15,554 bases of DNA from Actinomycetota bacterium (GCA_043747685.1 JAYTOR010000124.1:1-15554), one strand, 5' to 3'; shown: positions 2,357 through 15,426, numbered from the stretch's first letter. Made by a program: numbers and translations. The notes: generated by a model from the sequence alone, not told the origin.

Positions 2357-3751
2357 CTATCGACGAACTGCCACCCTGCTGACACTGGCGACGAAGGCCT
2401 GGACTGCACCGAGATCGTTGGCCAGTAGCGACGTACGCTCGTGACGTTCGAACAGGTCTGCGAGATGCGGGGGCAGCGGAGGACGGATGCCAGTCGCCCG
2501 TTGCACCGCATCGGGGAACTTGGCGGGATGCGCCGTCGCCAAGGTGACGATCGGCACACCAGGATCGCCTTTCGAACGGGCAGCAGCGATACCGACCGCG
2601 GTATGCGGCTCGGTGAGCATTCCGGTCCGGCGGTAGACGTCGGCGATCGTCGCCAGCGTCTGGGAATCGTCGAAGCGCGCCGCCTTGAAGACGGGCGCGA
2701 TCCACTCGTCGAACAGATCGTTTTCGACGTCGAGGCGGCCGACCGCTCGGAAACGGTTCAACTGTTCCGCCGTCATGCCACCGTCGCGCCCGTTCATCTC
2801 GAACAGCAGGCGTTCGAAGTTCGAGGACACGGCGATGTCCATCGACGGCGACAACGTCGGCGTGACTCCGTCGTTGACCATCGCCCTGGTTTCGACGAAG
2901 CGCGTGAGAATGTCGTTCGTGTTCGATCCGATGACGAGCGATTCGATCGGCGCACCGGACCGGCGGGCGATCCACCCGGCGAGGACATTCCCGAAGTTCC
3001 CGGTCGGGACACTGAACGAGACCGGCTGATTGCCGAGCGAGCGCGCGGCCCAGACGTAGTAGACGACTTGAGCGACGATGCGCGCCCAGTTGATCGAGTT
3101 GACCGCCGACAGTTGGTACTGCAGCCGAAATGCCTGATCGGCGAACATCGCCTTGACGAGATCCTGGCAGTCGTCGAACGTGCCGTCGACGGCGATCGCA
3201 TGAACGTTGGGGGAATCGACGGTCGTCATCTGCCGGCGCTGGACGTCGCTGGTACGGCCATTCGGGTAGAGGATGACGATGTCGACATTGTCGCAGTGCT
3301 TCACTGCGTCGATCGCCGCAGAACCGGTGTCGCCGGACGTCGCACCGACGATCGTGACCCGCTGGCCACGTTCGGCGAGCACGTAGTCGAACAGTCTGCC
3401 GACGAGTTGCAGGGCGACGTCCTTGAACGCAAGCGTCGGCCCGTGGAACAGTTCGAGCACCCATTCGTTCGGGCCGATCTGCACGAGCGGAGTGACGGCA
3501 GGATGGCCGAAGGTGGCGTAGGCCTCGCGGCACATCATCTCGAACGCTTCCTTCGGCACGTCATCGCCGACATACGGCAGCATCACGGCGGCGGCCACGG
3601 CCGCATAGTCGTCGGCAGGACCGAACGTCGCCAACTGCGGCCACGACGTCGGGACGTAGAGCCCACCATCGTCTGCGAGGCCGGTGAGCAATACATCGGC
3701 GAAGCCGAGTTCAGGTGCCAGGCCACGGGTCGAGACATAACGCATGCTCAC
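2357..3751 (-). CDS. thrC: Threonine synthase (long, actinobacterial/plant-type ThrC)
   Basis: 464 aa. N-terminus 'MRYVSTRG'. PLP-lysine motif 'GPTLAFKDVALQ'. Gly-rich PLP phosphate loop 'VPTGNFGNVLAG'. The GTG start overlaps the hom stop (GTGA). Position after hom matches the conserved lysA-hom-thrC order. Confidence 0.9.
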   Translation of the reverse strand: MSMRYVSTRGLAPELGFADVLLTGLADDGGLYVPTSWPQLATFGPADDYAAVAAAVMLPYVGDDVPKEAFEMMCREAYATFGHPAVTPLVQIGPNEWVLELFHGPTLAFKDVALQLVGRLFDYVLAERGQRVTIVGATSGDTGSAAIDAVKHCDNVDIVILYPNGRTSDVQRRQMTTVDSPNVHAIAVDGTFDDCQDLVKAMFADQAFRLQYQLSAVNSINWARIVAQVVYYVWAARSLGNQPVSFSVPTGNFGNVLAGWIARRSGAPIESLVIGSNTNDILTRFVETRAMVNDGVTPTLSPSMDIAVSSNFERLLFEMNGRDGGMTAEQLNRFRAVGRLDVENDLFDEWIAPVFKAARFDDSQTLATIADVYRRTGMLTEPHTAVGIAAARSKGDPGVPIVTLATAHPAKFPDAVQRATGIRPPLPPHLADLFERHERTSLLANDLGAVQAFVASVSRVAVRR

Positions 3752-5094
3752 GCGCCGATCACCCGAAGTAGGCCGCCGATGCGCTTGACGATGGCCAGAT
3801 CACCGAGGTTGCGGACCGTCGCTTGAACGTCGGCCTCACGGGCGGCATGGGTGATGAACACGAGCCTGGCATCGTCGCCGATGCCTTCCTGCTCCATCGC
3901 CCGGATGCTGACGCCGTTGTCGGAGAAGACGCCCGTGACCGCGTGCAACACGCCGGGACGATCGACGACGTCGAGGCTGAGCAGGTATTCGGCGCTCGTC
4001 TCGTCAATCGGGCGCAGCGGTGTGCGGGTGAAGGTTCCGAGTGACGCATGGGTCCCCGCACGAAGGTTGATGGCGGCGTCGATGACATCACCGAGCACGG
4101 CGCTCGCCGTCGGCATCCCGCCGGCACCACGTCCGTAGAACATTAGCGAGCCGACGGCATCACCTTCGATGAACACTGCGTTGTAGCTGTCGCGGACACT
4201 GGCGAGGGGATGGTGCTTCGGCACCATCGCCGGGTGAACCCGAACGGCGATCTCGCCGCTGCCGGGATCCCGATCGCAGATCGCCAACAGCTTGACGACG
4301 TAGCCGAGGCGGTCGGCGACGGCGATGTCCTCGGCGGTGATGCGGCTTATGCCCTCGTGATACACGTCGCCGGCGACGACTCGTGCCCCGAAGGCGATGC
4401 TGGCGAGAATCGCCGCTTTGGCACCGGCGTCGAATCCTTCGACGTCCGCCGTCGGGTCACGTTCTGCGTACCCCAGGCGTTGCGCCTCGGCGAGGGCGAC
4501 GGAGTAATCCATACCCTCCTCGCTCATCTTCGTGAGGATGAAGTTCGTCGTCCCGTTGACGATCCCGAGCACCCTGCGGATCGGTTCGCCGCGCAGGCTC
4601 TCACGGAGCGGCCTGATCAGCGGGATGCCGCCGGCCACGGCCGCTTCGAACAGCAGATCGACGCCGGCGGTATCGGCGGCGGCGAACAGCTCGGCGCCGA
4701 CGTTGGCAAGGAGTTCCTTGTTGGCGGTCACGACCGGCTTGCCGGACTTCAACGATTCGAGGATCAGCTCGCGGGCGGGTTCGATGCCACCGATCAGCTC
4801 GACGACGAGGTCGACGTCGGGATTGGCGACCACGCCGTGGGCGTCTCGCGTCAGCACGCCGGCAGGCAGCGTGTATTCGCGCTGACGGGACAGGTTGCGG
4901 ACCGCAACGCTGACGACCTGCAGACGCACCCCGGTCCGCTGGGCGATCACGTCAGCCCGCTCGGCGACGAGTCCGGCAAAAGCCGACCCTACGTTTCCAC
5001 AACCGAGCACGCCAATGCGTACCGTTGCTTCTGATGTACCTACCGGATCACTCACAGCGAGCCAGAGTACCGAACCGTTCGGCACCGGCCACAC
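3748..5094 (-). CDS. hom: Homoserine dehydrogenase with C-terminal ACT regulatory domain
   Basis: 448 aa. N-terminal NAD(P)-binding Rossmann motif 'RIGVLGCGNVGSAFAGLV'. Central catalytic domain ('GGIPLIRPLRESL', 'NGTTNFILTKM'). C-terminal ACT-like segment ('LDVVDRPGVLHAVTGVFSDNGVSIRAMEQ'). GTG start at 5094 was verified in the sequence. Stop overlaps the thrC start. Confidence 0.9.
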   Translation of the reverse strand: MWPVPNGSVLWLAVSDPVGTSEATVRIGVLGCGNVGSAFAGLVAERADVIAQRTGVRLQVVSVAVRNLSRQREYTLPAGVLTRDAHGVVANPDVDLVVELIGGIEPARELILESLKSGKPVVTANKELLANVGAELFAAADTAGVDLLFEAAVAGGIPLIRPLRESLRGEPIRRVLGIVNGTTNFILTKMSEEGMDYSVALAEAQRLGYAERDPTADVEGFDAGAKAAILASIAFGARVVAGDVYHEGISRITAEDIAVADRLGYVVKLLAICDRDPGSGEIAVRVHPAMVPKHHPLASVRDSYNAVFIEGDAVGSLMFYGRGAGGMPTASAVLGDVIDAAINLRAGTHASLGTFTRTPLRPIDETSAEYLLSLDVVDRPGVLHAVTGVFSDNGVSIRAMEQEGIGDDARLVFITHAAREADVQATVRNLGDLAIVKRIGGLLRVIGA

Positions 5095-5272
5095 GTATTC
5101 CGACCACGTCTATCCCGTCGCACCGCCCGACAAAGGCTCTTGACAATGGCGACAGAAGTGCCATCAATAGACATAGAGATTCGATGAACGAACCCTCAAG
5201 TACACACAAACAGTCATCCCTGCGGCTTTTCACAGCCGGGAGCCAGTCGGCTGGCGACCTGGCGGCCCGGCG
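5095..5272. promoter_or_regulatory. Divergent intergenic/promoter region between hom (minus) and the nfeD-like gene (plus). Contains a consensus TTGACA at ~5140-5145 (plus strand) with a weak -10-like 'ATCAAT' 17 bp downstream.
   Basis: A 178-bp non-coding spacer that is noticeably more AT-rich than its surroundings ('aatagacatagagattcgatgaacgaaccctcaagtacacacaaacag'). The perfect -35 hexamer was read directly. The -10 assignment is weak. Confidence 0.3.
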
Positions 5273-6157
5273 ATGATGCACCTGCTGAGCGCCTTTCCGA
5301 CCTCCGTCTTCTCGGGTCTACTGATCTTCTGTCTGTCCTGGTGGGTCATCACGCTGGTGTTCTCCGGCCTCGGTGGCCACGGACACGCCGGCCACGCTGG
5401 CCATGCCGGCCACAGCGGTGGGAATGATTTCAGCGGCCACGGTGCCGGCGGGCACGTCTCCGGCGGCGGCCACGGTGCGGTGAGCAGCGGCGGAGCGGCA
5501 GGACACGCAGCACCGGGACATGCCGGATCCGGACACGTCGCAGGTGGCCACGCCGCGCCGACGCATACCGCTCCAGGCGACGGTCACCAAGTCGCCGGCG
5601 AACACGCTGCTCATCACGCCGCAGCCCACGGCGAGCACGGCCGTCACGGCCACTCCGACAACGGCTCGACCCACGGCGCCCACAGCTTCAGCCAGACACT
5701 CGGCTTCGACGTTGTTCCCCTCCCATTGATCCTCACCCTCTTCGCCTTCGGCGGGTGGGCGACATCGATCCTCATGCAGACGATCCTCGGGACATCGGCG
5801 ACGGCGAACGTCGCAGCGGGTACTGCCGTGTTGATCGTCGTGGTCGCCTCCGCCGCCGGGCTCGGTGTCATCAAGGTCGCCGCCAAGCCGCTCGGCTCCG
5901 TCTTCGAGGTCACCCTTGCTGCGGAACGCCTCGAGGGTGTCGGTTCGGTCTGCAAGATCCGCACGATGACCGTCACCGAGACGTTCGGGGACGCCATCGT
6001 CATCACCGGCACGACAAAGGGATCGATCGTCAGGGTGCGTGCCACCGCAGGCCGGTTCGCCCGGGGAGACCTGGCGCTGATGATCGACTATGACGAACCG
6101 GCCAACTCGTTCGTCATCGACGAACTCGACGAGGAACTCCGCCCGGCAGGCGCATAG
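5273..6157 (+). CDS. NfeD/YqiJ-like membrane protein (short NfeD form) with C-terminal OB-fold domain and a ~105-aa His/Gly-rich inter-helix loop
   Basis: 294 aa. N-terminal hydrophobic helix ('VFSGLLIFCLSWWVITLVFSGL'). Two further predicted TM helices ('VVPLPLILTLFAFGGWATSILMQTIL', 'AAGTAVLIVVVASAAGLGVIKVAA'). The C-terminal ~90 aa ('KPLGSVFEVTLAAERLEGVGSVCKIRTMTVTETFGDAIVITGTTKGSIVRVRATAGRFARGDLALMIDYDEP') resembles the NfeD beta-barrel/OB domain. It lies immediately upstream of an SPFH/flotillin gene, as in yqiJ-yqiK and yuaF-floT. Confidence 0.75.
   Translation: MMHLLSAFPTSVFSGLLIFCLSWWVITLVFSGLGGHGHAGHAGHAGHSGGNDFSGHGAGGHVSGGGHGAVSSGGAAGHAAPGHAGSGHVAGGHAAPTHTAPGDGHQVAGEHAAHHAAAHGEHGRHGHSDNGSTHGAHSFSQTLGFDVVPLPLILTLFAFGGWATSILMQTILGTSATANVAAGTAVLIVVVASAAGLGVIKVAAKPLGSVFEVTLAAERLEGVGSVCKIRTMTVTETFGDAIVITGTTKGSIVRVRATAGRFARGDLALMIDYDEPANSFVIDELDEELRPAGA
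5372..5693 (+). repeat. His/Gly/Ala-rich low-complexity coding region (degenerate GHAGH repeats; ~23 His in ~105 residues) within the nfeD-like gene
   Basis: Translation 'GGHGHAGHAGHAGHSGG...GHVSGGGHG...GHAAPGHAGSGHVAGGHAAPTHT...GEHAAHHAAAHGEHGRHGHSDNGSTHGAHS'. The DNA shows reiterated 'ggccac/ggacac-gcc' units. Confidence 0.8.
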
Positions 6158-6291
6158 CCCAGTCATCCAGCACGCATCCTGCCCTCGTACCTGCGTGCTC
6201 ACGCTGCTCGCACAACCACTCCCCTGCTCACGCACACCATTTCCCAATACACACCTGTTCACTGCACCTGTACAAGGTCACAACCGTTCCA

Positions 6292-6298
6292 GAAGGAG
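6292..6298 (+). promoter_or_regulatory. Shine-Dalgarno sequence (GAAGGAG) for the flotillin gene
   Basis: 'agaaggagcgacatctcatcATG'. A strong SD lies ~12 nt upstream of the ATG at 6311. Confidence 0.6.
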
Positions 6299-6310
6299 CG
6301 ACATCTCATC

Positions 6311-8392
6311 ATGAGTTTCCCCGCAGCAATCAGCGCAGCAATCAGCGCACCGGCCGTTGTCGGGCTGGTGATCGTCGCAGGCGCCCTCATCCTCGTGCTC
6401 GTCACGATGTGGATCACGCGGCTCTACAAGAAAGTGCATCAGGGCGAAGCACTGATCATCTCCCGCAAGCAGACGATCGACGTGACCTTCACCGGCGGCG
6501 TCGTCTGGCCGGTCGTCAACCGTGGTGAGTTCATGGACATCGGCGTCAAGGTCATCGAGATCGACAAGGTCGGCAAGGAGGGCCTGATCTGTCGTGACAA
6601 CATCCGTGCCGACATCCGCGTCAGCTTCTATGTCCGGGTCAACCCGACGGCCGAGGACGTCCGCAAGGTCGCCCAGCTCGTCGGCTGCGACAACGCTTCG
6701 AGCCCGGAGAAGCTGGACGAACTGTTCTCAGCCAAGTTCGCCGAGTCGTTGAAGACGGCCGGTAAGCAGATGGATTTCGTGCAGCTCTACGAACAGCGCG
6801 AGCAGTTCCGCACGAACGTCATCGCCGTCATCGGCGAGGACCTCAACGGGTACATGCTCGACGACGTCGCGATCGAATATCTCGAGCAGACGTCGATGGC
6901 AGAACTCGACCCGACGAACGTGTTGGACGCAGAGGGCATCAAGAAGATCACCGATATCACGACACGTGAAAATGTGCAGGCGAACATCTTCCGCCGCGAG
7001 GCAGAGAAGCAGATCAAGGCCAAGGACGTCGAGACACAGCAGGCGATCTTCGAGATGGAACGCCAGGAGAAGGCCGCAGAGTTCAGGGCCCAGCGCGAAA
7101 TGGCGACGACGAAGGCACGTGAGGAATCGTTGACCGCGCAGGTCGAGGCCGAGGAACGGATGAAGGCGGAGGGTGCCCGCCTGAAGACCGACGAGCAGGT
7201 CGGTATCCAGCAGCAGAACACCCAGCGCGAGATCGAAGTCGCCGGAAAGGCCCGTGAGCGCGTGCTCGCCGCCGAAACGGTGAAGATCGACAAAGCCCGC
7301 CAGTTGGAGACCGTCGCCACGCAGATCGAGACACTGTCGGCCAGTAAGGATCTAGAACAGGAGAAGGCTCGCGTCGCCGAACTCGCCAAGGCGCGTATCG
7401 CTGTCGAGAAGACGGTCGCAGAGCAGGAAGAAGCGATCAAGACGCTGCGCCAGGTCGAGGGTGCCAATCGTGACAAGCAGTCGATGGTCATTGCCGCAGG
7501 CGGCCAGGCAGAAGCGATCCTCATCAAGACGATCAAGGAGGCAGAGGCCAGGGCGCAGGCCGCGGAGTCACTCGGCAAGGAGCGCATCACCCTGGCGCAG
7601 GCGACGCAGGGCGCAGCCGAACTCGAAGCGACGGCCAAGATCCGACTCGCCGACGGCATCCGTGCCGAAGCCGCAGCGGAGGGCCTCGCGGCGGTCGAAG
7701 TGCAGAAGGCCAACGCCGGTGCGATCGAACAGACAGGCCTCGCCAACGTCCGCGTCACCCAGGCGCAGGCCGACGCCGACCTCAAGAAGGGCCAGGCTGC
7801 CGCCGAGGTTGCACGCCTGACCGGCGAGGCCGACGGAGCCGCCATCGAGGCTCGCCTCAAGGGCGAAGCCGCCGGTATCACCGACAAGGCTGCGGCAATG
7901 AAGGAACTCGAAGGCGTCGGCAAGGAATACGACCTCGCGGTGCGCAACATCGACGCCGACGTCGCCGTCCGCACTGCCTCGATCAATGCCAACAAGGAAG
8001 CACAGATCGCCCAGGCGACAGCGATGGGGAACGCCCTGCAGACCGCCGACATCAACATCGTCGGCGGCACCGACATGTTCGTCGACCGCATCATGGGGGC
8101 CGCGGCGATGGGCAAGTCGCTGGAGAGCTTCGCTGACTCCTCGAAGACGACACGTCAGATCGCCAAGCCGTACCTCAACGGCGACAAGGACCTCGTCGAG
8201 ACGCTCGCCGGAGCACTCGGCGGCCTCGGCACCGGCGGCCTCGCCAACCTCTCGCTCGCCCATTTCCTGCGGGTGCTGTCCGATCGTGTCGGCGGCGACG
8301 AGGGTGCCTCGATCGGCGAACTCGTCGGCTCGTTGAAGGAACGCGGCCTCGAAGGCGTCACCCTCGGCGCACTCGCCACGCCGGACAAATAA
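6311..8392 (+). CDS. Flotillin-family SPFH (band-7) protein, YqiK/FloT-like, with an extended Ala/Glu/Gln-rich coiled-coil region
   Basis: 693 aa. N-terminal membrane anchor ('AVVGLVIVAGALILVLVTMWITRLYKK'). SPFH core ('GEALIISRKQTIDVTFTGGVVWPVVNRGEFMDIGVKVIEIDKVGKEGLICRDNIRADIRVSFYVRV'). Long EA-repeat/coiled-coil flotillin domain over ~aa 215-560 ('REAEKQIKAKDVETQQAIFEMERQEKAAEFRAQREMATTKAREESLTAQVEAEERMKAEGARLK...'). Conserved operon partner of NfeD. Confidence 0.85.
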   Translation: MSFPAAISAAISAPAVVGLVIVAGALILVLVTMWITRLYKKVHQGEALIISRKQTIDVTFTGGVVWPVVNRGEFMDIGVKVIEIDKVGKEGLICRDNIRADIRVSFYVRVNPTAEDVRKVAQLVGCDNASSPEKLDELFSAKFAESLKTAGKQMDFVQLYEQREQFRTNVIAVIGEDLNGYMLDDVAIEYLEQTSMAELDPTNVLDAEGIKKITDITTRENVQANIFRREAEKQIKAKDVETQQAIFEMERQEKAAEFRAQREMATTKAREESLTAQVEAEERMKAEGARLKTDEQVGIQQQNTQREIEVAGKARERVLAAETVKIDKARQLETVATQIETLSASKDLEQEKARVAELAKARIAVEKTVAEQEEAIKTLRQVEGANRDKQSMVIAAGGQAEAILIKTIKEAEARAQAAESLGKERITLAQATQGAAELEATAKIRLADGIRAEAAAEGLAAVEVQKANAGAIEQTGLANVRVTQAQADADLKKGQAAAEVARLTGEADGAAIEARLKGEAAGITDKAAAMKELEGVGKEYDLAVRNIDADVAVRTASINANKEAQIAQATAMGNALQTADINIVGGTDMFVDRIMGAAAMGKSLESFADSSKTTRQIAKPYLNGDKDLVETLAGALGGLGTGGLANLSLAHFLRVLSDRVGGDEGASIGELVGSLKERGLEGVTLGALATPDK

Positions 8393-8543
8393 AGCTCCCG
8401 CGGCTCGACCGAACGTCGCCCCCGATCGATGCGTGACGTCGTGCATACCGAGCCGATCCGACGATGTGTGGAACGGCGAGACGTCCGGGTACGAACGGCG
8501 CCCGGATACCCGATGACGTTTGAATTGAAAGATGTGAGTTGCC

Positions 8544-11500
8544 TTGACTGACACAGCGAACGAGCAGCCAGCTCCCCAACCGCCGGACGGCGCTGGCAAC
8601 AGCGCTGCCGACGGTCAGGCCGCAGCGCCGATTGCTGCCAGCGAATCCGGTCCGGGCGACCACGCAACGTCGGGCGGCGCAACGTCGGGCGGCGCACTGC
8701 CGAGTGCCGAATCGGCTGCCCAACCATCGATGTCCTCATCGACCTACGACCTGTTGCGTGAGCGACTGCGCGGCGTCGCCGAACGACTTCGTGACGCTGC
8801 TGATGCGCTCAACAGCGAGCGTGCGGAGGTCTTCGCATCGGTGCCGATGGCGCTCGCCGAACAGGATCGCCTGCGCACCGAGCAGCCGAGTACACCGGCC
8901 GATGCAGTCAGCGTCGAGGGACTGCTCGTGTTCGGTTACAACGTCGGTGCGTCGCTCGGCAAGACCCGCACGGTCGACGATGCCTTCGAGTTGTTCGAGA
9001 TGGACAAGGCGGCGGCGAACGACTGGACGTTCACCCCACTGAGCAAAGACGCTCCGAAATGGTTCCTGCGAGATCCTGGCTTCCAGCGCGACGCCGGCGA
9101 ACTGTTCACCTACTACGCCGACACCCGCCTCGACTCGCTCACGCTGCACGAGTCACGGTTACTGATGGTCTTCCGGTTCGGTCCGGCACCCGACGACGTC
9201 CGAGTGCTGCGCTGGCAGTTGGAGGGAGAAGACCTGCGCTACATCGACGCCTATGGTGACCACGATGTCGTCCAGACTGCGGCGTACGACTTCACTTGGA
9301 CGACGGCCGGGCGGGAGCAACTCGTCGATGGGCGTTGGCCGCACCTGATCATCGGCGGCAGCCTGTACATCGGATTCGACAAGCGCGAGATCCAGTTCCG
9401 CATCGACGACGTCGTCGAGGGTGGGCGCACGATTTTCCAGGAGCCAGTCAACGAAACAGGTCAGGTGATCGGCGAGACCGCTGTCTCGTATGCGCTGATG
9501 GACGAGATCGTGCTCGTCCGCCTGCAGCCCTACCGTGAACAGCAGGAACGCTTCTACATCTTCAACCGTCTCACACGGGCGGTGCAGCGCGCCGACGCGA
9601 TCGGCAGGAACTGCCATCTGCTGCCGGAGGGTCAGGGTGTCGTCTTCCCCGGCGGCTACCACCTGCAGAACGGTGAGACGAAGGTCTTCAGTACCGACGC
9701 GACGGGTTTCGGGTTCCAGGCCGTGCACCGCTCCCCCAACGGCGAGGACATCCTCTACGTCTACCGGCGGGCGTCAGGAGAATTCCTGTTGTGCGCATAC
9801 AACGTGGTGACGCGCACGATGGACACGCCGATCAGTTCGCACGGCTACGCGCTGTTCGACGACGGCGTCATCGTCTGCCTTCGTGGTGCTCCAGAGCCGC
9901 AGCGTATACACACGATCAACGTCTACACCAGCCCGTTCTGCACGCCCGACAACTACACGCCGTCTGTCCCGTCCGATTCGTTCTTCGGGCGCACTGGCAA
10001 CCCGGAACTCGTGCGGGTACTCGGTGAGACGATCTCGCTCGCTCGCGACGCCGCCGACCCGCAGTTCAACCAAGCGATCTTCGAGGCGCTCGTCGCCAGG
10101 TCGACGACGCTGCTCGACGGCTACGGCTGGCTCAATCAGCCGGAGGCTCACGGTGTCGGCGCGCTCCTCGGCGAGCTGCGCAAGACGTCGGGCTCGGTGC
10201 TCGACGAGTTCGCCTCGGTCGTCTCGGCGAAGAAGGAGGCTGCCGATCGGTTGTCGGATGCAACACGAGTCGTCAACGACCTCGCAGCCGATTCCGAGTT
10301 GCCGATCCGTGACGCACCGGCGTTCATCGACAAGCTCGCAGCCGCCCGCCAGGCGCTCGGCGTGCTGTCGTCGCTGTCGGAGGTCCGCCAGATGGACCAC
10401 GTGGCGCTCGAAGCCCTGAAGGCCCTGGCGCAGGCTGTCTACGACAAGTTGGCGACGCGGGCGATCGAGTTCCTCGACACCGACCACTCGCTCGACTCGA
10501 TCACCAAGTCCTACGACGACGCCGAACGCGAAGGCGCTGTTGCGGTGACGGCCTCGCTCGTCAACGAGCAGATGAAGTTGGTCGACGAGGCAGGCGATCG
10601 CGTCGTGTTGCTCACCGATGTCGTCGGCGGACTGGAGGTCGAGGACCCGACGCGCAAGACGTCGGTGCTCGGCCGTCTCGCCGACGCCCTCGCCAGGCGC
10701 AACGCCGTGCGCGCAACGCTGGACCTGCGGGCGATCTCACTGCGCTCGGCAGAGGCAGAGGCAGGCTTCGCAGCGGCGATGGCTGTGCTATCGCAGCGCG
10801 CGACCGCTTCGATCGCCGCAGCCGCCGACGCAGCTGCGTGCGATTCGGCGCTCGCTTCGCTGTCCGCCGAACTGGAGAATGCCGACCTCCGCTATGGCGA
10901 CGTTCCCGCATTCGCCGATGCGATCGACACCCGCCGGTCCGAACTGAGTACCGCCTTCAACCAGCGCCGCGATGCCCTTGCCGCCGAGCGGACACACAAG
11001 ATCGATCGACTGGCGCAGTCCGCACAGCGCATCCTCGTGACGGTCACGACACGCGCCTCGGCACTGGCGGGCCGGGCGGAGATCGACGCCTTCTTCGCTA
11101 CCGACAGCCTCGTGACCAAGGTCCGTGCGACCGCTGCGGAACTGCGAAACCTCGGAGAAGCCGGACGTTCCAGCGAACTGGAAGTGGCCCTGTCCGGCGC
11201 GCGCGATCAGGCTCGCCGTACCGCCAATGACCGTGCCGACCTGTTCGAAGCGGGGACGGTCCGCATCGGTAAGTGGAAGTTCGGTATCAACACGGAACCG
11301 TTCGAGTTGCGCCTCGACTCGAACGTCACCGACCCGGCACACCCGATGTTCGAACTCCGTCTCACCGGAACCGAACTGCGGATGCCGATCCGGGAGGGCG
11401 CCCTTGCCCAATTCGCCGACCTCGCCGGTCAGAATTATCCGAGCGAGACCACGACGATCCCACGTGCCGCATACCTCGCGTTCTCGGCGCTGACCCAGGA

Positions 11501-13475
11501 CATCCCGACCTCCGGCATCTCGGCATATGCGACGTCGCGGATCGAGGACGGCTTCGAGCCCGGTGTCCACGACGCCGACGCGGTGCGCATCGTCGAAGCA
11601 TTGCAGCCGTGGTGGACCGTTCCGGCGGTGAGAGTTTCCGGCATCGACCGCGCTGTCGCCGGTGTATGGCTCCGCTCGCTCGATCTTCGCCAACACGACG
11701 AACTCGCCAAGGAACTGATCGCCCTCGAAGCGTTGGGAATCGGCAAGTCGCGTAAGGCATTCATCAAGCGCGTCGGGCCGCAACTCGATTCGATCGCCTC
11801 GGAGGCGGGACTCAAGCATCGTTTCGATGCACGAGTCGCCTGCGACTGGCTGATCAACCGCTCACAGGAGGCGGCCGTCCGCCCGGACGCTGCGAAGGCT
11901 GCTGAACACCTGGAATCGTGGGGCTCCGAACACGGCCTCGACCTGCGCCACGCAACATTCGGTCAGCTCGTCCGCTGGGCCCAGGACCTGGACCCAGCGT
12001 CGCCGATCTCCGTCGCCGCCGAGGCCGTCTGGAAAATCCTCGACCCGAACGTCGCAATCGCCACCGGGGTGCCGACCACGGTCACCGTCACTGGTCTGCG
12101 CAGCCAACATCCGGCGATCGTCAATGGTTCACTGACGCTCGATCCGAGCGATTCGTTGACGAACTTCATGACGTACCGCCGCGACGGCGTCGATCGCTTC
12201 CGGCAGTTCAGCGAGAGCCGCCGCATTCTGCTCACCAACGAACAGCAGCGCCTGGAACTCGACACGCTGCATCCGACAGTGATCACCTCCTTCGTCCGCA
12301 ACCGCCTGATCGACGAGGTCTACCTGCCACTCGTCGGCGACAACGTCGCCCGCCAGCTGGGCCTCAACGGCGCGGCCCAGGGCCTGCTGCTGCTGATCTC
12401 ACCACCCGGCTATGGCAAGACGACGCTGATCGAATACGTGGCCTCGCTACTGGGGTTTGCGCTGGTCAAGATCAACGGACCTGCACTCGGCGACGAGGTC
12501 ACCTCACTCGACCCTGCGGCTGCGCCGAACCTCGCCGCCGCCGAGGAACTGGCGAAGTTGAACCGCGCATTTGCGATGGCCAACAACGTCATCTGCTATC
12601 TCGACGACGTGCAGCACACCTCGCCAGAACTGCTGCAGAAGTTCATCCCGCTGTGCGACGCGACGCGCCGGATCGAGGGCGTACTCGAAGGTGAGGCGAA
12701 GACGTTCTCCCTGGCTGGCAAGCGTTTCGTGATGGTCATGGCTGCCAACCCGTACACCTCGTCCGGTTCCTCGTTCCGGATTCCAGACATGTTGGCGAAC
12801 CGTGCCGACGTCCACAATCTCGGCGATGTCGCCCTGTCTGCAGCTGCCGCTTTCGCCCAGAGCTTCGTCGAGAACGGCTGCGGTGTGAACGAGGTCGTGG
12901 CCCCCGTGCTGTCTCGGGGTAAGCAGGACCTCGACGTGCTGTTGCGTGCTGCCGCCGGCCAACCGCTGCGTAGTGACGACCTCATCCATCCGTACGGTGC
13001 GACGGAGTTGACGCAGATCACCAAGACTCTCAGCCATCTGCTGCGTGTCCGCGATCAACTGCTCAAGGTCAACGCCGCCTACATCGCCTCGGCAACCGTC
13101 GACGATCATCTGCGTGGCGAACCGTCGTTTCTACTGCAGGGTTCGTACCGCAACATGGCGAGAATAGCCCAACGCATCGTCCCGGCGATGACCCCGGCGG
13201 AAGTCGACCTCGCCGTCGGAGAGCACTATCGGGCGGAGTCACAGACGCTCGCCGCGGCCGCCGGCTGGAACCTCGCCAAGCTCGGCGAGGTATTGGGCAC
13301 TGCCTCGCCGGAGGCTCTCGCAGGGTTGAACCAGATGCGCAAGCGGTGGAAGGAATCGAACGTCGCCGGCGACCCCTTGGCGGTGATGGCGGCAGCATTG
13401 CGCGACATCGCCGGAGCGGTCAACGCCCACAACAACGGAACCCCGCTCCCCCCGCCACCGACCCCTGTGTTCTGA
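8544..13475 (+). CDS. Giant (1643-aa) soluble protein with a C-terminal MoxR/AAA_5-type AAA+ ATPase core, an N-terminal low-complexity tail plus coiled coil, and a large beta-rich domain and helical middle region, neither assignable to a known family from sequence alone
   Basis: Uninterrupted ORF with a TTG start (first start after an in-frame TGA). No predicted TM helices. Walker A 'LLLLISPPGYGKTTL' (nt ~12396-12425, Lys ~aa 1292). Walker B 'NVICYLDDVQHTSPELLQKF' (DD at nt ~12603-12608). Sensor-1 'VMVMAANPY' (nt ~12738-12752). Arg-finger region 'RIPDMLANRADV'. The motif pattern hhhhDD-x-ELL / AxNP / LxxR matches MoxR-type (helix-2-insert clade) AAA+ rather than classic AAA. Lies 151 bp downstream of flotillin on the same strand. 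Confidence 0.7.
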   Translation: MTDTANEQPAPQPPDGAGNSAADGQAAAPIAASESGPGDHATSGGATSGGALPSAESAAQPSMSSSTYDLLRERLRGVAERLRDAADALNSERAEVFASVPMALAEQDRLRTEQPSTPADAVSVEGLLVFGYNVGASLGKTRTVDDAFELFEMDKAAANDWTFTPLSKDAPKWFLRDPGFQRDAGELFTYYADTRLDSLTLHESRLLMVFRFGPAPDDVRVLRWQLEGEDLRYIDAYGDHDVVQTAAYDFTWTTAGREQLVDGRWPHLIIGGSLYIGFDKREIQFRIDDVVEGGRTIFQEPVNETGQVIGETAVSYALMDEIVLVRLQPYREQQERFYIFNRLTRAVQRADAIGRNCHLLPEGQGVVFPGGYHLQNGETKVFSTDATGFGFQAVHRSPNGEDILYVYRRASGEFLLCAYNVVTRTMDTPISSHGYALFDDGVIVCLRGAPEPQRIHTINVYTSPFCTPDNYTPSVPSDSFFGRTGNPELVRVLGETISLARDAADPQFNQAIFEALVARSTTLLDGYGWLNQPEAHGVGALLGELRKTSGSVLDEFASVVSAKKEAADRLSDATRVVNDLAADSELPIRDAPAFIDKLAAARQALGVLSSLSEVRQMDHVALEALKALAQAVYDKLATRAIEFLDTDHSLDSITKSYDDAEREGAVAVTASLVNEQMKLVDEAGDRVVLLTDVVGGLEVEDPTRKTSVLGRLADALARRNAVRATLDLRAISLRSAEAEAGFAAAMAVLSQRATASIAAAADAAACDSALASLSAELENADLRYGDVPAFADAIDTRRSELSTAFNQRRDALAAERTHKIDRLAQSAQRILVTVTTRASALAGRAEIDAFFATDSLVTKVRATAAELRNLGEAGRSSELEVALSGARDQARRTANDRADLFEAGTVRIGKWKFGINTEPFELRLDSNVTDPAHPMFELRLTGTELRMPIREGALAQFADLAGQNYPSETTTIPRAAYLAFSALTQDIPTSGISAYATSRIEDGFEPGVHDADAVRIVEALQPWWTVPAVRVSGIDRAVAGVWLRSLDLRQHDELAKELIALEALGIGKSRKAFIKRVGPQLDSIASEAGLKHRFDARVACDWLINRSQEAAVRPDAAKAAEHLESWGSEHGLDLRHATFGQLVRWAQDLDPASPISVAAEAVWKILDPNVAIATGVPTTVTVTGLRSQHPAIVNGSLTLDPSDSLTNFMTYRRDGVDRFRQFSESRRILLTNEQQRLELDTLHPTVITSFVRNRLIDEVYLPLVGDNVARQLGLNGAAQGLLLLISPPGYGKTTLIEYVASLLGFALVKINGPALGDEVTSLDPAAAPNLAAAEELAKLNRAFAMANNVICYLDDVQHTSPELLQKFIPLCDATRRIEGVLEGEAKTFSLAGKRFVMVMAANPYTSSGSSFRIPDMLANRADVHNLGDVALSAAAAFAQSFVENGCGVNEVVAPVLSRGKQDLDVLLRAAAGQPLRSDDLIHPYGATELTQITKTLSHLLRVRDQLLKVNAAYIASATVDDHLRGEPSFLLQGSYRNMARIAQRIVPAMTPAEVDLAVGEHYRAESQTLAAAAGWNLAKLGEVLGTASPEALAGLNQMRKRWKESNVAGDPLAVMAAALRDIAGAVNAHNNGTPLPPPPTPVF
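12350..12985 (+). other. AAA+ ATPase core (Walker A, Walker B, sensor-1, Arg finger) of the giant protein
   Basis: Motifs listed above were located by in-frame mapping to the 8544 start. Domain boundaries are approximate. Confidence 0.65.
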
Positions 13476-13505
13476 CCACCAGAAGTTGTCATATCGAGAT
13501 GGTGA

Positions 13506-13526
13506 ATATCGCAGCGGATGCGATAT
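13506..13526. terminator. Perfect 8-bp inverted repeat 'atatcgca-gcgga-tgcgatat' in the 89-bp convergent spacer between the giant ATPase gene and the PemK-like gene. Candidate bidirectional terminator or protein-binding palindrome.
   Basis: Read directly from the sequence. The stem is AT-rich and has no flanking T/A tract, so intrinsic-terminator strength is doubtful. Confidence 0.25.
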
Positions 13527-13564
13527 CCGCCACCTCGACCCGAAGCGCGCTTACATCGCCTGTT

Positions 13565-14152
13565 TCAGGCCAGGCGGATACCGTGGAATTTCCGCAAGGC
13601 AGTGACCACATCATCGAAGCGGTGTCGCTCGAGGATTGAGCCTTCGCGACGCACGGCACCGGGATGGACGGTCAGGATGCGTTCGAGCTTGGCATAGCTC
13701 GCGCGTCCACTCGAGTCCCACGAGCCGACGCCGACCGGGACCTCGTCCCGGCGTTCGGGATGCGGCTTGGTCGTCAATTGAACGGCGGCGAGGTCCGAAC
13801 CTGCTCGGCCGATGATCACCACCGGGCGGTCTTTGCCCTGCGTCGGATCGTCCTCGAATTGCACCCAGGTCCACACGACCTCACCGGGGTCAGGATCACC
13901 GTCGAGCATCGGCGAGTAGACGATCGTGACGTCAGCGAGTTCGGTGTCCGGCTCGACCCGATGGCCGGCCCGCACGCCAGCTGCTGGCGGCACGACTCGA
14001 CGCCCGCCGGTTCGAGGGACTGGTCGAGGTACGGGTCCGGGACGGACGTCGCCGATCCTCGGCCGGCTGGCGGATACGGCGGGTGATCGGCGAGGCGGCT
14101 GCGTGTCGGCACCCTTCCTGAAGCGGTCGAAGAACTGTCCTAAGCGGCTCAT
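13565..14152 (-). CDS. PemK/MazF/Kid-fold (type II toxin-like) protein with a ~90-aa Pro/Arg-rich N-terminal extension. Its start codon overlaps the lysA stop (ATGA).
   Basis: The C-terminal ~110 aa align by eye with MazF/Kid. 'GEVVWTWVQFEDDPTQGKDRPVVIIG' matches MazF 'GDLIWVDFDPTKGSEQAGHRPAVVLS' and Kid 'GEIWLVSLDPTAGHEQQGTRPVLIVT'. 'AVQLTTKPH' matches 'CVPCTTQ' and 'VVPVTSG'. 'YAKLERILTVHPGAVRREGSILERHRFDDVVTALRKF' matches Kid 'RGGKRLERVPETIMNEVLGRLSTIL'. The long N-terminal extension could be an artefact of start choice, since an internal Met at 'SPMLDGDPDPGEVVW' would give a canonical ~113-aa toxin. Confidence 0.5.
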   Translation of the reverse strand: MSRLGQFFDRFRKGADTQPPRRSPAVSASRPRIGDVRPGPVPRPVPRTGGRRVVPPAAGVRAGHRVEPDTELADVTIVYSPMLDGDPDPGEVVWTWVQFEDDPTQGKDRPVVIIGRAGSDLAAVQLTTKPHPERRDEVPVGVGSWDSSGRASYAKLERILTVHPGAVRREGSILERHRFDDVVTALRKFHGIRLA

Positions 14153-15426
14153 CAGTCGACGTCACACCGGATCAAGTCGTCGTATGTCTCACGGCGCATC
14201 ACCAGTCGCGATTCTCCATCCCGAACGAAGGCCACTGCCGGCCTGGTCAACTTGTTGTAGTTCGACGACAGCGCAAGCCCATAGGCTCCGGTCACCGGGG
14301 TGGCGAGGAGGTCTCCGACGGCCAACTGTTCCGGGACCGCTGCATCGAAGATCAGGACGTCACCGCTCTCGCAATGCTTACCGACGAGACGCGCATGACG
14401 GGAGCGGTCGGCGAGCGGGTGCGATGGCATGAACGCCTCGTATCCACTGCCGTACAGCACGGGACGGGGATTGTCGCTCATACCGCCATCGACGGCGATG
14501 TAGGTGCGGATGCCGGGGATGTCCTTGATCGTTCCGACGGTGTAGACGGTGATCGCGGCTGACGCGACGATCGCCCTACCGGGTTCGACGGAGATACGGG
14601 CATCGACGCCGAGACCGGAGCAGGCGTCGTGCAACACCTTGGCCCACGAGGTGATCGTCGGGGCTTCTTCGCCGGCGACATACGCGACCCCGAGGCCTCC
14701 GCCGAGCGTCAGTTCCGGCAGTCCGAGCGGATTGAAGAACCCGGCCATCACTTCGGCGGCACGACCGAAGTTCTCAGCGACGAAGACGTTCGATCCGATG
14801 TGGCAGTGCAGCCCGGTCAGGGTGACTGCTGACGATGCGCGCGCTCGTTCCACGGCGCGCAGTGCGTCGCCGTTGGCGAGGTTGAATCCGAACTTCGAAT
14901 CATCCTGACCGGTGGCGATGAAATCGTGAGTATGAGCATGGACACCGGGGGTGATTCGCAGATGGACGTCGACGGGCGGCAGGCCTTCACGGTGCAACAT
15001 GTCGAGGCGGTCAAGTTCGTCGAAGCTGTCGACGTTGACCTGACCGATGCCTGAGGTAATCGCATAACGCAGCTCGTCGAGGCTCTTGTTGTTGCCGTGC
15101 AGAACGCACTGTTCCGGCGACACACCGGCTGCCATCGCCACATACAGTTCGCCACCGGAGGCGACGTCGAGTCGCATGCCCTCCTCGACGGCGAGACGGG
15201 CCATTGCCTTACACAAAAAAGCTTTGGTGGCGTATACGACGTTGCCCACGCCGAATGCCTCGACCGCCTCACGGCAGCGATTGCGTAGGTGCGCCTCGTC
15301 GTAGATGAACAGCGGTGTGCCGTATTGCGCGACGAGGACAGAAACCAGCACACCACCGATCGAGAGTGAACCATCTGGTTCACACGTCGCAGTGTCAGGC
15401 AGCAGCGATTGCGGGATCGGATTCAT
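14152..15426 (-). CDS. lysA: Diaminopimelate decarboxylase
   Basis: 424 aa. 'YGTPLFIYDEAHLRNR' N-terminus. PLP-lysine motif 'VVYATKAF'. 'LTLGGGLGVAY', 'SVEPGRAIVA' and 'GKHCESGDVL' are characteristic DapDC/fold-III decarboxylase motifs. Position is immediately downstream of argS, as in actinobacterial argS-lysA operons. Confidence 0.92.
   Translation of the reverse strand: MNPIPQSLLPDTATCEPDGSLSIGGVLVSVLVAQYGTPLFIYDEAHLRNRCREAVEAFGVGNVVYATKAFLCKAMARLAVEEGMRLDVASGGELYVAMAAGVSPEQCVLHGNNKSLDELRYAITSGIGQVNVDSFDELDRLDMLHREGLPPVDVHLRITPGVHAHTHDFIATGQDDSKFGFNLANGDALRAVERARASSAVTLTGLHCHIGSNVFVAENFGRAAEVMAGFFNPLGLPELTLGGGLGVAYVAGEEAPTITSWAKVLHDACSGLGVDARISVEPGRAIVASAAITVYTVGTIKDIPGIRTYIAVDGGMSDNPRPVLYGSGYEAFMPSHPLADRSRHARLVGKHCESGDVLIFDAAVPEQLAVGDLLATPVTGAYGLALSSNYNKLTRPAVAFVRDGESRLVMRRETYDDLIRCDVD

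Follow-up and report, generated by a model that had tools for sequence, protein, structure and literature searches.

The 15,554-nucleotide stretch of DNA from an Actinomycetota bacterium analyzed here (GCA_043747685.1, JAYTOR010000124.1:1-15554; "the window" in the following) carries on its plus strand three consecutive open reading frames (ORFs) that encode a small membrane protein (ORF1), a flotillin (ORF2) and a giant soluble ATPase (ORF3). Comparison of gene order and domain content identifies this module as the three-gene, abbreviated form of an operon class described by Ravi et al. (PMC11237479). The window supplies a new actinobacterial example of a known, computationally described class and its value is confirmatory: an abbreviated operon wedged into the lysA-hom housekeeping cluster of an uncultured actinobacterium. 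The module is widespread across many phyla and joins flotillin microdomains and PspA, the bacterial ESCRT-III-like phage-shock protein, i.e. two poorly understood membrane-organising systems, to an energy-consuming enzyme. The ATPase is an obvious candidate for the turnover of bacterial flotillin and PspA assemblies.

The three-gene module

ORF1 (5273-6157, 294 aa, ATG start), ORF2 (6311-8392, 693 aa, ATG start) and ORF3 (8544-13475, 1643 aa, TTG start) are all encoded on the plus strand and are separated by spacers of 153 bp (6158-6310) and 151 bp (8393-8543). In the first spacer a Shine-Dalgarno sequence (AAGGAG, 6293-6298) precedes the flotillin ATG by 12 nt. For ORF3 the TTG at 8544 is a credible start because its close homologues all begin with M/V/L-T-D, followed by a variable low-complexity tail and then by the conserved core. 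A consensus scan found no terminator-like site in either internal spacer, and the RNA folds of the two spacers do not differ significantly from those of shuffled sequences (z -1.09 for 6158-6310, z -0.01 for 8393-8543). In the 89-nt convergent gap 3' of the ATPase stop codon, a stem-loop (13494-13538) is a candidate, possibly bidirectional, terminator; the gap folds with -28.3 kcal/mol (z -2.46; matched by 4 of 200 shuffled sequences). The consensus scan did not call this hairpin because a T-run is missing, and its one call is an implausible minus-strand site within the ATPase gene. On the 5' side, the intergenic region 5095-5272, which separates ORF1 from the divergently oriented hom gene (minus strand), is the sole sizeable non-coding stretch and presumably holds the promoter. 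It contains a perfect TTGACA (5140-5145); a full sigma-70 site was not found by a consensus scan of the window, this region included. Rfam gave no match anywhere in the window.

The ORF3 product matches the Pfam families DUF3686 (E 4e-128), DUF7902 (aa 650-729), AAA and AAA_5 and lacks any hydrophobic or transmembrane (TM) segment, which marks it as a soluble protein. An AlphaFold2 model built with a 44-sequence alignment (pLDDT 86.2 for aa 63-1200 and 86.5 for aa 1150-1643) predicts the order N-terminal helix, beta-propeller, some 420 residues of long helices, small beta domain, helical domain, AAA+ module and C-terminal helices. The putative propeller (8850-9929, aa ~103-462) is all-beta in the model. 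Foldseek searches with the N-terminal part returned the WD40 protein UTP18, the clathrin terminal domain, IFT-A and YncE propellers, and the modelled front end, a propeller followed by helical repeats, is similar to clathrin and IFT-A in its membrane-coat architecture. The long helical/coiled-coil region that follows (9981-11243, aa ~480-900) includes DUF7902, with modelled helices of up to ~58 residues. The small beta plus helical domain (11256-12041, aa ~905-1166, secondary structure taken from the model) matches no Pfam family and no PDB sequence. Its helical part, 5' of the AAA+ module, carries residues that are invariant across phyla, namely G1003, G1007 and H1009-D1010-x-D1012 (a GVHDxD-like motif, 11550-11579).

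The single AAA+ module (12303-13178, aa ~1254-1545) is MoxR/AAA_5-like by predicted fold, with CbbQ and NorQ as closest structural matches, and contains Walker A (SPPGYGKTT, 12399-12425) and Walker B (VICYLDD, 12588-12608) motifs. K1292 of Walker A, D1354-D1355 of Walker B, N1402, R1420 and R1536 are invariant among distant homologues, and the enzyme is probably active despite a DD in place of the usual DE in Walker B. At the level of sequence, phmmer and profile searches of the PDB gave Walker-A-level matches only, an hhalign comparison of the ORF3 profile with E. coli RavA reached 11% probability over the Walker A region only, and all NCBIfam matches were sub-threshold and confined to the P-loop. 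The family defined by the N-terminal domain comprises 507 representatives at 50% identity (E up to 1e-3). In most of the representatives listed this domain lies at the N-terminus, and full-length members measure ~1500-2000 aa. Every family member examined has the same domain architecture.

ORF2 is identified by its sequence as a flotillin of the YqiK/FloT type. It matches Band_7/SPFH (aa 41-245, E 1.3e-11), shares 30% identity with E. coli YqiK over 477 aa (E 4e-42) and has a single hydrophobic segment (aa 1-39); the order is N-terminal TM segment or hairpin, SPFH/Band-7 domain, long Ala/Glu-rich coiled coil and C-terminal region. ORF1 has hydrophobic windows that predict three TM regions (~aa 3-35, 142-168 and 171-207), in the order TM1, His/Gly/Ala-rich loop (aa 33-140), TM2, TM3 and C-terminal OB-like domain. 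In an alignment of 30 orthologues, likewise, a charged loop separates TM1 from TM2, and TM3 leads over to a conserved C-terminal domain. The window protein alone matches no Pfam family. We assign it to the YqiJ/YuaF type because hhalign matches the profile of this orthologue alignment to E. coli YqiJ across TM2-TM3-OB (probability 95.9%, E 6e-9) and because six of the 30 orthologues match Pfam YqiJ_N. Judged by these comparisons, the tie is to the YqiJ branch only; Pfam NfeD (PF01957) is matched neither by the window protein nor by any of the 30 orthologues (E up to 1).

The ORF calls reproduce exactly the three co-directional genes, the coordinates and the spacer lengths given in an initial annotation made from the sequence alone. 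Its domain labels hold for the YqiJ-like protein (by the YqiJ profile), for the flotillin (by Band_7) and, by predicted fold, for the MoxR-like AAA+ module, whereas the NfeD label finds no Pfam counterpart.

As a side observation, the ORF1 loop between TM1 and TM2 (5369-5692) is unusual in composition, with 23 His, 32 Gly and 21 Ala in ~108 residues and GHAGHAGHAGH-type repeats. The orthologues carry short acidic DxDxD loops at this place, and the His-rich loop is a possible metal-binding variant.

Conservation of gene order

A profile built from 12 diverse ATPase homologues was scanned against a one-genome-per-species set of GTDB and yielded at least 584 matches that were confirmed, with P. 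aeruginosa, Proteus, Xenorhabdus and Streptomyces among the organisms represented. The best-scoring 80 of these were taken with 10-kb flanks, and the three window proteins were searched against the six-frame ORFs of these loci. The 80 loci belong to Actinomycetota, Myxococcota, Planctomycetota, Gamma-, Beta- and Zetaproteobacteria, Bacteroidota, Verrucomicrobiota, Lentisphaerota, Acidobacteriota and one Clostridia metagenome-assembled genome (at least eight phyla).

Upstream DNA is usable in 75 loci, and in 74 of them a flotillin orthologue (E 1e-58 to 1e-275) directly precedes the ATPase gene in the same orientation. Of the six loci without one, five have less than 120 nt of sequence 5' of the ATPase gene. 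Between the flotillin stop codon and the first aligned ATPase residue the median distance is 131 nt, and 54 of 73 loci stay within 200 nt. In most loci the flotillin gene is in turn preceded by a YqiJ-like gene. Because this gene order recurs in nearly all informative loci across many phyla, the linkage goes beyond chance. The survey of SPFH/NfeD synteny that the initial annotation had proposed is therefore strongly positive, and it clearly contradicts the lack of synteny that was to refute the module. Its candidate operon is also upheld as one conserved unit, given this synteny, spacers free of terminators and RNA structure, and a hairpin after the last gene.

In several loci heterogeneous small genes sit exactly between the flotillin and the ATPase gene (L069 7961-9873, L075 6718-7248, L063 9314-9943, L070 9500-9943, L056 9474-9926, L079 4918-5466). 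By eye they resemble two tandem Rpn/PD-(D/E)XK-like genes and REP-type transposase-like, DUF559-like endonuclease and zinc-ribbon genes. We rejected them as parts of the module; they are mutually unrelated and, again judged by eye, selfish or accessory in look. The flotillin-ATPase spacer seems to tolerate or attract selfish insertions.

PspA and other neighbours of the module

An all-vs-all clustering of neighbouring ORFs gave no fourth gene common to all lineages. A PspA/IM30 gene is found just 5' of the module in 18 of the 80 loci. In 15 proteobacterial loci it forms a pair with a DUF2170 gene (YjfI, CesT/Tir-like) directly 5' of the YqiJ-like gene, and in three Bacteroidota loci PspA stands there alone. 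Further membrane-related genes occur downstream in single proteobacterial loci: a PLD-type hydrolase (L040), a rhomboid protease (L036) and TelA (L034). The full row in the two Pseudomonas loci L036 and L040 reads hom, thrC, two genes, DUF2170, PspA, YqiJ, flotillin and ATPase, followed by the rhomboid protease or the PLD gene, respectively. A composite operon is present on pQBR103, a 425-kb megaplasmid of P. fluorescens SBW25 (L085, NC_009444.1 85464-104323). Here a row of yjf-type PspA/polyamine genes (PspA, rhomboid, DUF2491, DUF350, DUF1190 and a glutathionylspermidine-synthase-like, i.e. GspS-like, gene) is followed by a hypothetical protein, an SPFH gene and, in last position, the giant ATPase gene.

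In Streptomyces, 11 loci (among L024-L060) have a gene for a PucR-type regulator (GGDEF_2 + HTH_30) just 5' of the module, divergently oriented in ten of them. It lies at about 5.3-7.5 kb of the respective locus (e.g. L024 6052-7347, minus strand). This protein is a candidate lineage-specific regulator of the Streptomyces module.

Comparison with known systems

Ravi, Anantharaman, Aravind, Gennaro et al. (mSystems 2024, PMC11237479; bioRxiv 2020) described a class of PspA-linked Band-7/flotillin operons. In its full form (their section 19) a CesT/Tir-PspA dyad accompanies the order YqiJ/YuaF protein (3-TM), Band-7 plus coiled-coil plus flotillin protein, and beta-propeller plus coiled-coil plus AAA-ATPase protein. 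Abbreviated operons with only the last three genes are reported there as widely distributed, and Table S3 lists the same gene order in Dokdonia (PMC11237479). The window holds a three-gene operon of this class: a multi-TM YqiJ/YuaF protein with OB-like domain comes first, a flotillin second and a propeller/coiled-coil/AAA+ protein third, all co-directional. It differs from the full form in lacking the CesT/Tir(DUF2170)-PspA dyad and the PLD gene; its host is an uncultured actinobacterium, and its YqiJ-like protein has the unusual His/Gly-rich loop of ~108 residues. The view of the initial annotation that no flotillin operon described so far includes a giant AAA+ partner is wrong, since the trio, including the three-gene form, is described in that paper (PMC11237479).

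The bacABCDEF operon of P. aeruginosa, a "biofilm-associated cluster" (PA3732-PA3727, PA14_16140-16200; PMC10948618), appears to be a six-gene long form of the module. Its genes encode a DUF2170 protein (PA3732), a PspA-like protein (PA3731), a 23-kDa TM protein (PA3730), a 76-kDa protein (PA3729) and a protein listed as "ATPase" (PA3728). This order matches that of L036 and L040, and it fits the numbering from PA3736 to PA3727. In strain PA14 the cluster was extended to bacABCDEF by reverse transcription PCR across every junction, and all Bac products accumulate together in a bacA mutant (PMC10948618; PMC2587700). The product across bacD-bacE demonstrates co-transcription there, by the kind of junction assay that the initial annotation had proposed. 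The bac promoter has been proposed to be sigma-54 dependent, which together with the six-gene form sets it apart from the window. Osmotic shock leads to accumulation of the PspA homologue PA3731. Published phenotypes cover biofilm, rhamnolipid, swarming and virulence.

The first two genes of the window are homologous to E. coli yqiJK and to B. subtilis yuaF(nfeD2)-floT. No ATPase gene adjoins E. coli yqiJK, and none is known in the B. subtilis operon. The window flotillin is ~140 aa longer than those of the two operons, mainly in the coiled-coil and C-terminal parts. Since the giant ATPase nearly always adjoins a flotillin gene, whereas yqiJK does without an adjoining ATPase, the ATPase would be a scaffold-dependent accessory.

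Two further comparisons concern the enzyme. HflK/C-FtsH likewise couples an SPFH scaffold to an AAA+ enzyme at the inner membrane. FtsH, however, is a membrane-anchored AAA protease of the classic clade, whereas the window ATPase is soluble, MoxR-like by predicted fold and, in the searches made, free of TM segments and of peptidase family matches. MoxR-type ATPases normally act with a VWA partner. Compared with CbbQ, NorQ and RavA, ORF3 lacks such a partner and carries ~1250 extra N-terminal residues (propeller, coiled coil and helical domain). With regard to ESCRT-III/Vps4, the ATPase is co-encoded with PspA, an ESCRT-III-superfamily polymer, in the 18 loci mentioned above, which by analogy suggests an ATP-driven polymer remodeller. 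A Vps4-like regulator of PspA appears to be absent in bacteria according to a 2025 review (PMC7619361).

Proposed mechanism

The analysis shows which genes make up the module and how their products are divided into domains, that the synteny is near-universal, and that genes for PspA and membrane enzymes recur next to the module. We consider it reasonably probable that the module encodes a flotillin-anchored, ATP-driven remodeller that serves in envelope stress and membrane maintenance. In a first step, the 3-TM/OB protein and the flotillin would build an SPFH scaffold at the cytoplasmic face of the membrane, as homology to YqiJK and YuaF-FloT suggests. The soluble 1643-aa ATPase would then dock on this scaffold via its N-terminal propeller and coiled coil; we infer this recruitment because the gene linkage is near-obligate and the protein has no TM segment. 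Finally, the single MoxR-like AAA+ module, presumably as a ring, would spend ATP on building up, taking apart or reshaping the flotillin scaffold or its clients. These clients could include PspA polymers as prime candidate, encoded in the operon or elsewhere in the genome. Docking partner, substrate and direction of remodelling are thus parts of the model. As its setting we suggest envelope stress, membrane repair and microdomain turnover. The interpretation of the operon class by Ravi et al., who tie it to the phage-shock system (PMC11237479), agrees with a role in membrane stress. The initial annotation had offered a membrane-remodelling or stress system as one of two alternatives, and this one fits the neighbours found: PspA/IM30 in close to a quarter of the loci, and PLD, rhomboid and TelA genes in single ones. 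A narrower version, in which the ATPase is the missing ATP-driven disassembly or remodelling motor for flotillin and/or PspA polymers, a Vps4/NSF analogue recruited by an SPFH cage, is rather unlikely in this specific form.

Several points weigh against a flotillin-anchored remodeller. The locus set, as the best-scoring 80 of at least 584 matches, is not phylogenetically independent, and the remaining exception to flotillin linkage (L074, with 1.4 kb of upstream sequence) carries a different membrane protein 5' of the ATPase gene. Among the nine window proteins scanned, none matches PspA_IM30 or DUF2170; here a link to PspA would need a gene elsewhere in the genome. A VWA/MIDAS partner was found neither among these nine proteins nor among the recurrent neighbours. 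The assignment of the AAA+ clade comes from predicted structure, with sequence comparison reaching the Walker A region only, and the DD of Walker B departs from the usual DE. In P. aeruginosa the published bac phenotypes concern bacA and bacB, not the ATPase, and the putative orthology of PA3728 to the window ATPase is drawn from gene order (L036, L040), gene numbering and published sizes.

Alternative explanations

Quality control in the manner of HflK/C-FtsH would also make use of a scaffold next to an AAA+ enzyme. In such a scenario the flotillin/YqiJ assembly forms a cage that corrals membrane proteins, and the AAA+ enzyme would unfold them or pull them out and hand them over to a protease encoded elsewhere. 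The combination of SPFH scaffold and AAA+ enzyme is indeed the established logic of HflKC-FtsH, NfeD-type partners of SPFH proteins are sometimes proteases, and rhomboid protease genes adjoin the module in L036 and on pQBR103. These protease neighbours are, however, sporadic and unconserved across loci, ORF3 has neither a TM segment nor a protease domain, and the MoxR-like clade is better known for the maturation of complexes than for threading substrates to proteases. We regard this scenario as unlikely. The same clade could point to a maturation chaperone of the MoxR style, which would load a membrane complex with a cofactor or metal, or activate the complex, while the flotillin acts only as the platform for its assembly. 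The best structural matches, CbbQ and NorQ, are MoxR-type activators of Rubisco and NO reductase, and the YqiJ-like loop (acidic in most orthologues, 23 His in 108 residues in the window) could bind metal. Yet neither a gene for a VWA/MIDAS partner nor a conserved enzyme complex is found next to the module; its conserved partners are scaffold proteins and PspA instead of a metalloenzyme, and a chaperone of this kind is improbable.

Anti-phage or abortive-infection defence at flotillin microdomains, the second alternative of the initial annotation, is very improbable and essentially without support. A large multi-domain NTPase in a small operon, the PemK/MazF toxin gene adjoining the module in the window, L083 and L003, and the selfish-looking insertions between module genes in some loci would be in line with it. 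PADLOC-DB 2.0, searched with the three proteins and the PemK-like ORF, returned only a P-loop match to IetA (E 0.0087, no domain above threshold). The propeller domain of the ATPase matched none of 50,697 phage records in tblastn, and its gene occurs in just 13 of 72,556 plasmid records, mostly megaplasmids, chromids and mislabelled chromosomes, with Deinococcus among them. The module stands in a conserved housekeeping neighbourhood without tRNA, integrase or flanking repeats, and the uniform architecture of the ATPase in the members examined is unlike that of typical fast-diversifying defence genes. The defence-island context that had been suggested for other genomes did not appear either, as no defence gene recurs among the neighbours of the 80 loci. 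The last alternative, a DNA repair ATPase that neighbours membrane genes by chance, we hold to be almost negligible and likewise essentially unsupported. It draws on database names ("DNA repair ATPase" for the NCBI family of ORF3, "ATPase involved in DNA repair" for DUF3686 in Pfam) and on RuvB among the Foldseek matches, but no nuclease or DNA-binding domain was found in the Pfam scan and the name is not supported by the gene context. A literature search on DUF3686 found no paper.

Flanking genes

The genes on both sides of the module are encoded on the minus strand: rho (32-2092), thrC (2357-3751) and hom (3748-5094) on the left, and a PemK/MazF-like toxin gene (13565-14152), directly after lysA (14152-15426), on the right. 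In a near-identical contig (ENA ERZ27280971) the wider order is rpmE-rho-thrC-hom, module, PemK-lysA-argS, and a relative at 85% identity has the module at the same position. The GC content is ordinary, and short repeats occur at chance level only. Neither a tRNA nor an integrase nor a flanking repeat was found that would mark the module as a recent island. Between thrC and rho the window has a 264-bp gap only (2093-2356), without thrB. It thereby differs from the order in Mycobacterium, which we take to be lysA-hom-thrC-thrB-rho.

The PemK gene was called with 136 aa (13565-13975) in the near-identical contig, with the frame open to 14152; no obvious antitoxin ORF was seen upstream of it. A PemK gene adjoins the module also in the relatives L083 and L003. 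Finally, the module has hom, thrC or both within a few kb in three lineages that are unrelated to each other, i.e. the actinobacterial group of the window, Pseudomonas and a verrucomicrobium (window 2357-5094, L036 1-2549, L040 2-2487, L075 12528-13892, L003 2-610). This adjacency is commoner than we would expect and may be a coincidence; in the verrucomicrobium, thrC lies directly 3' of the ATPase gene.

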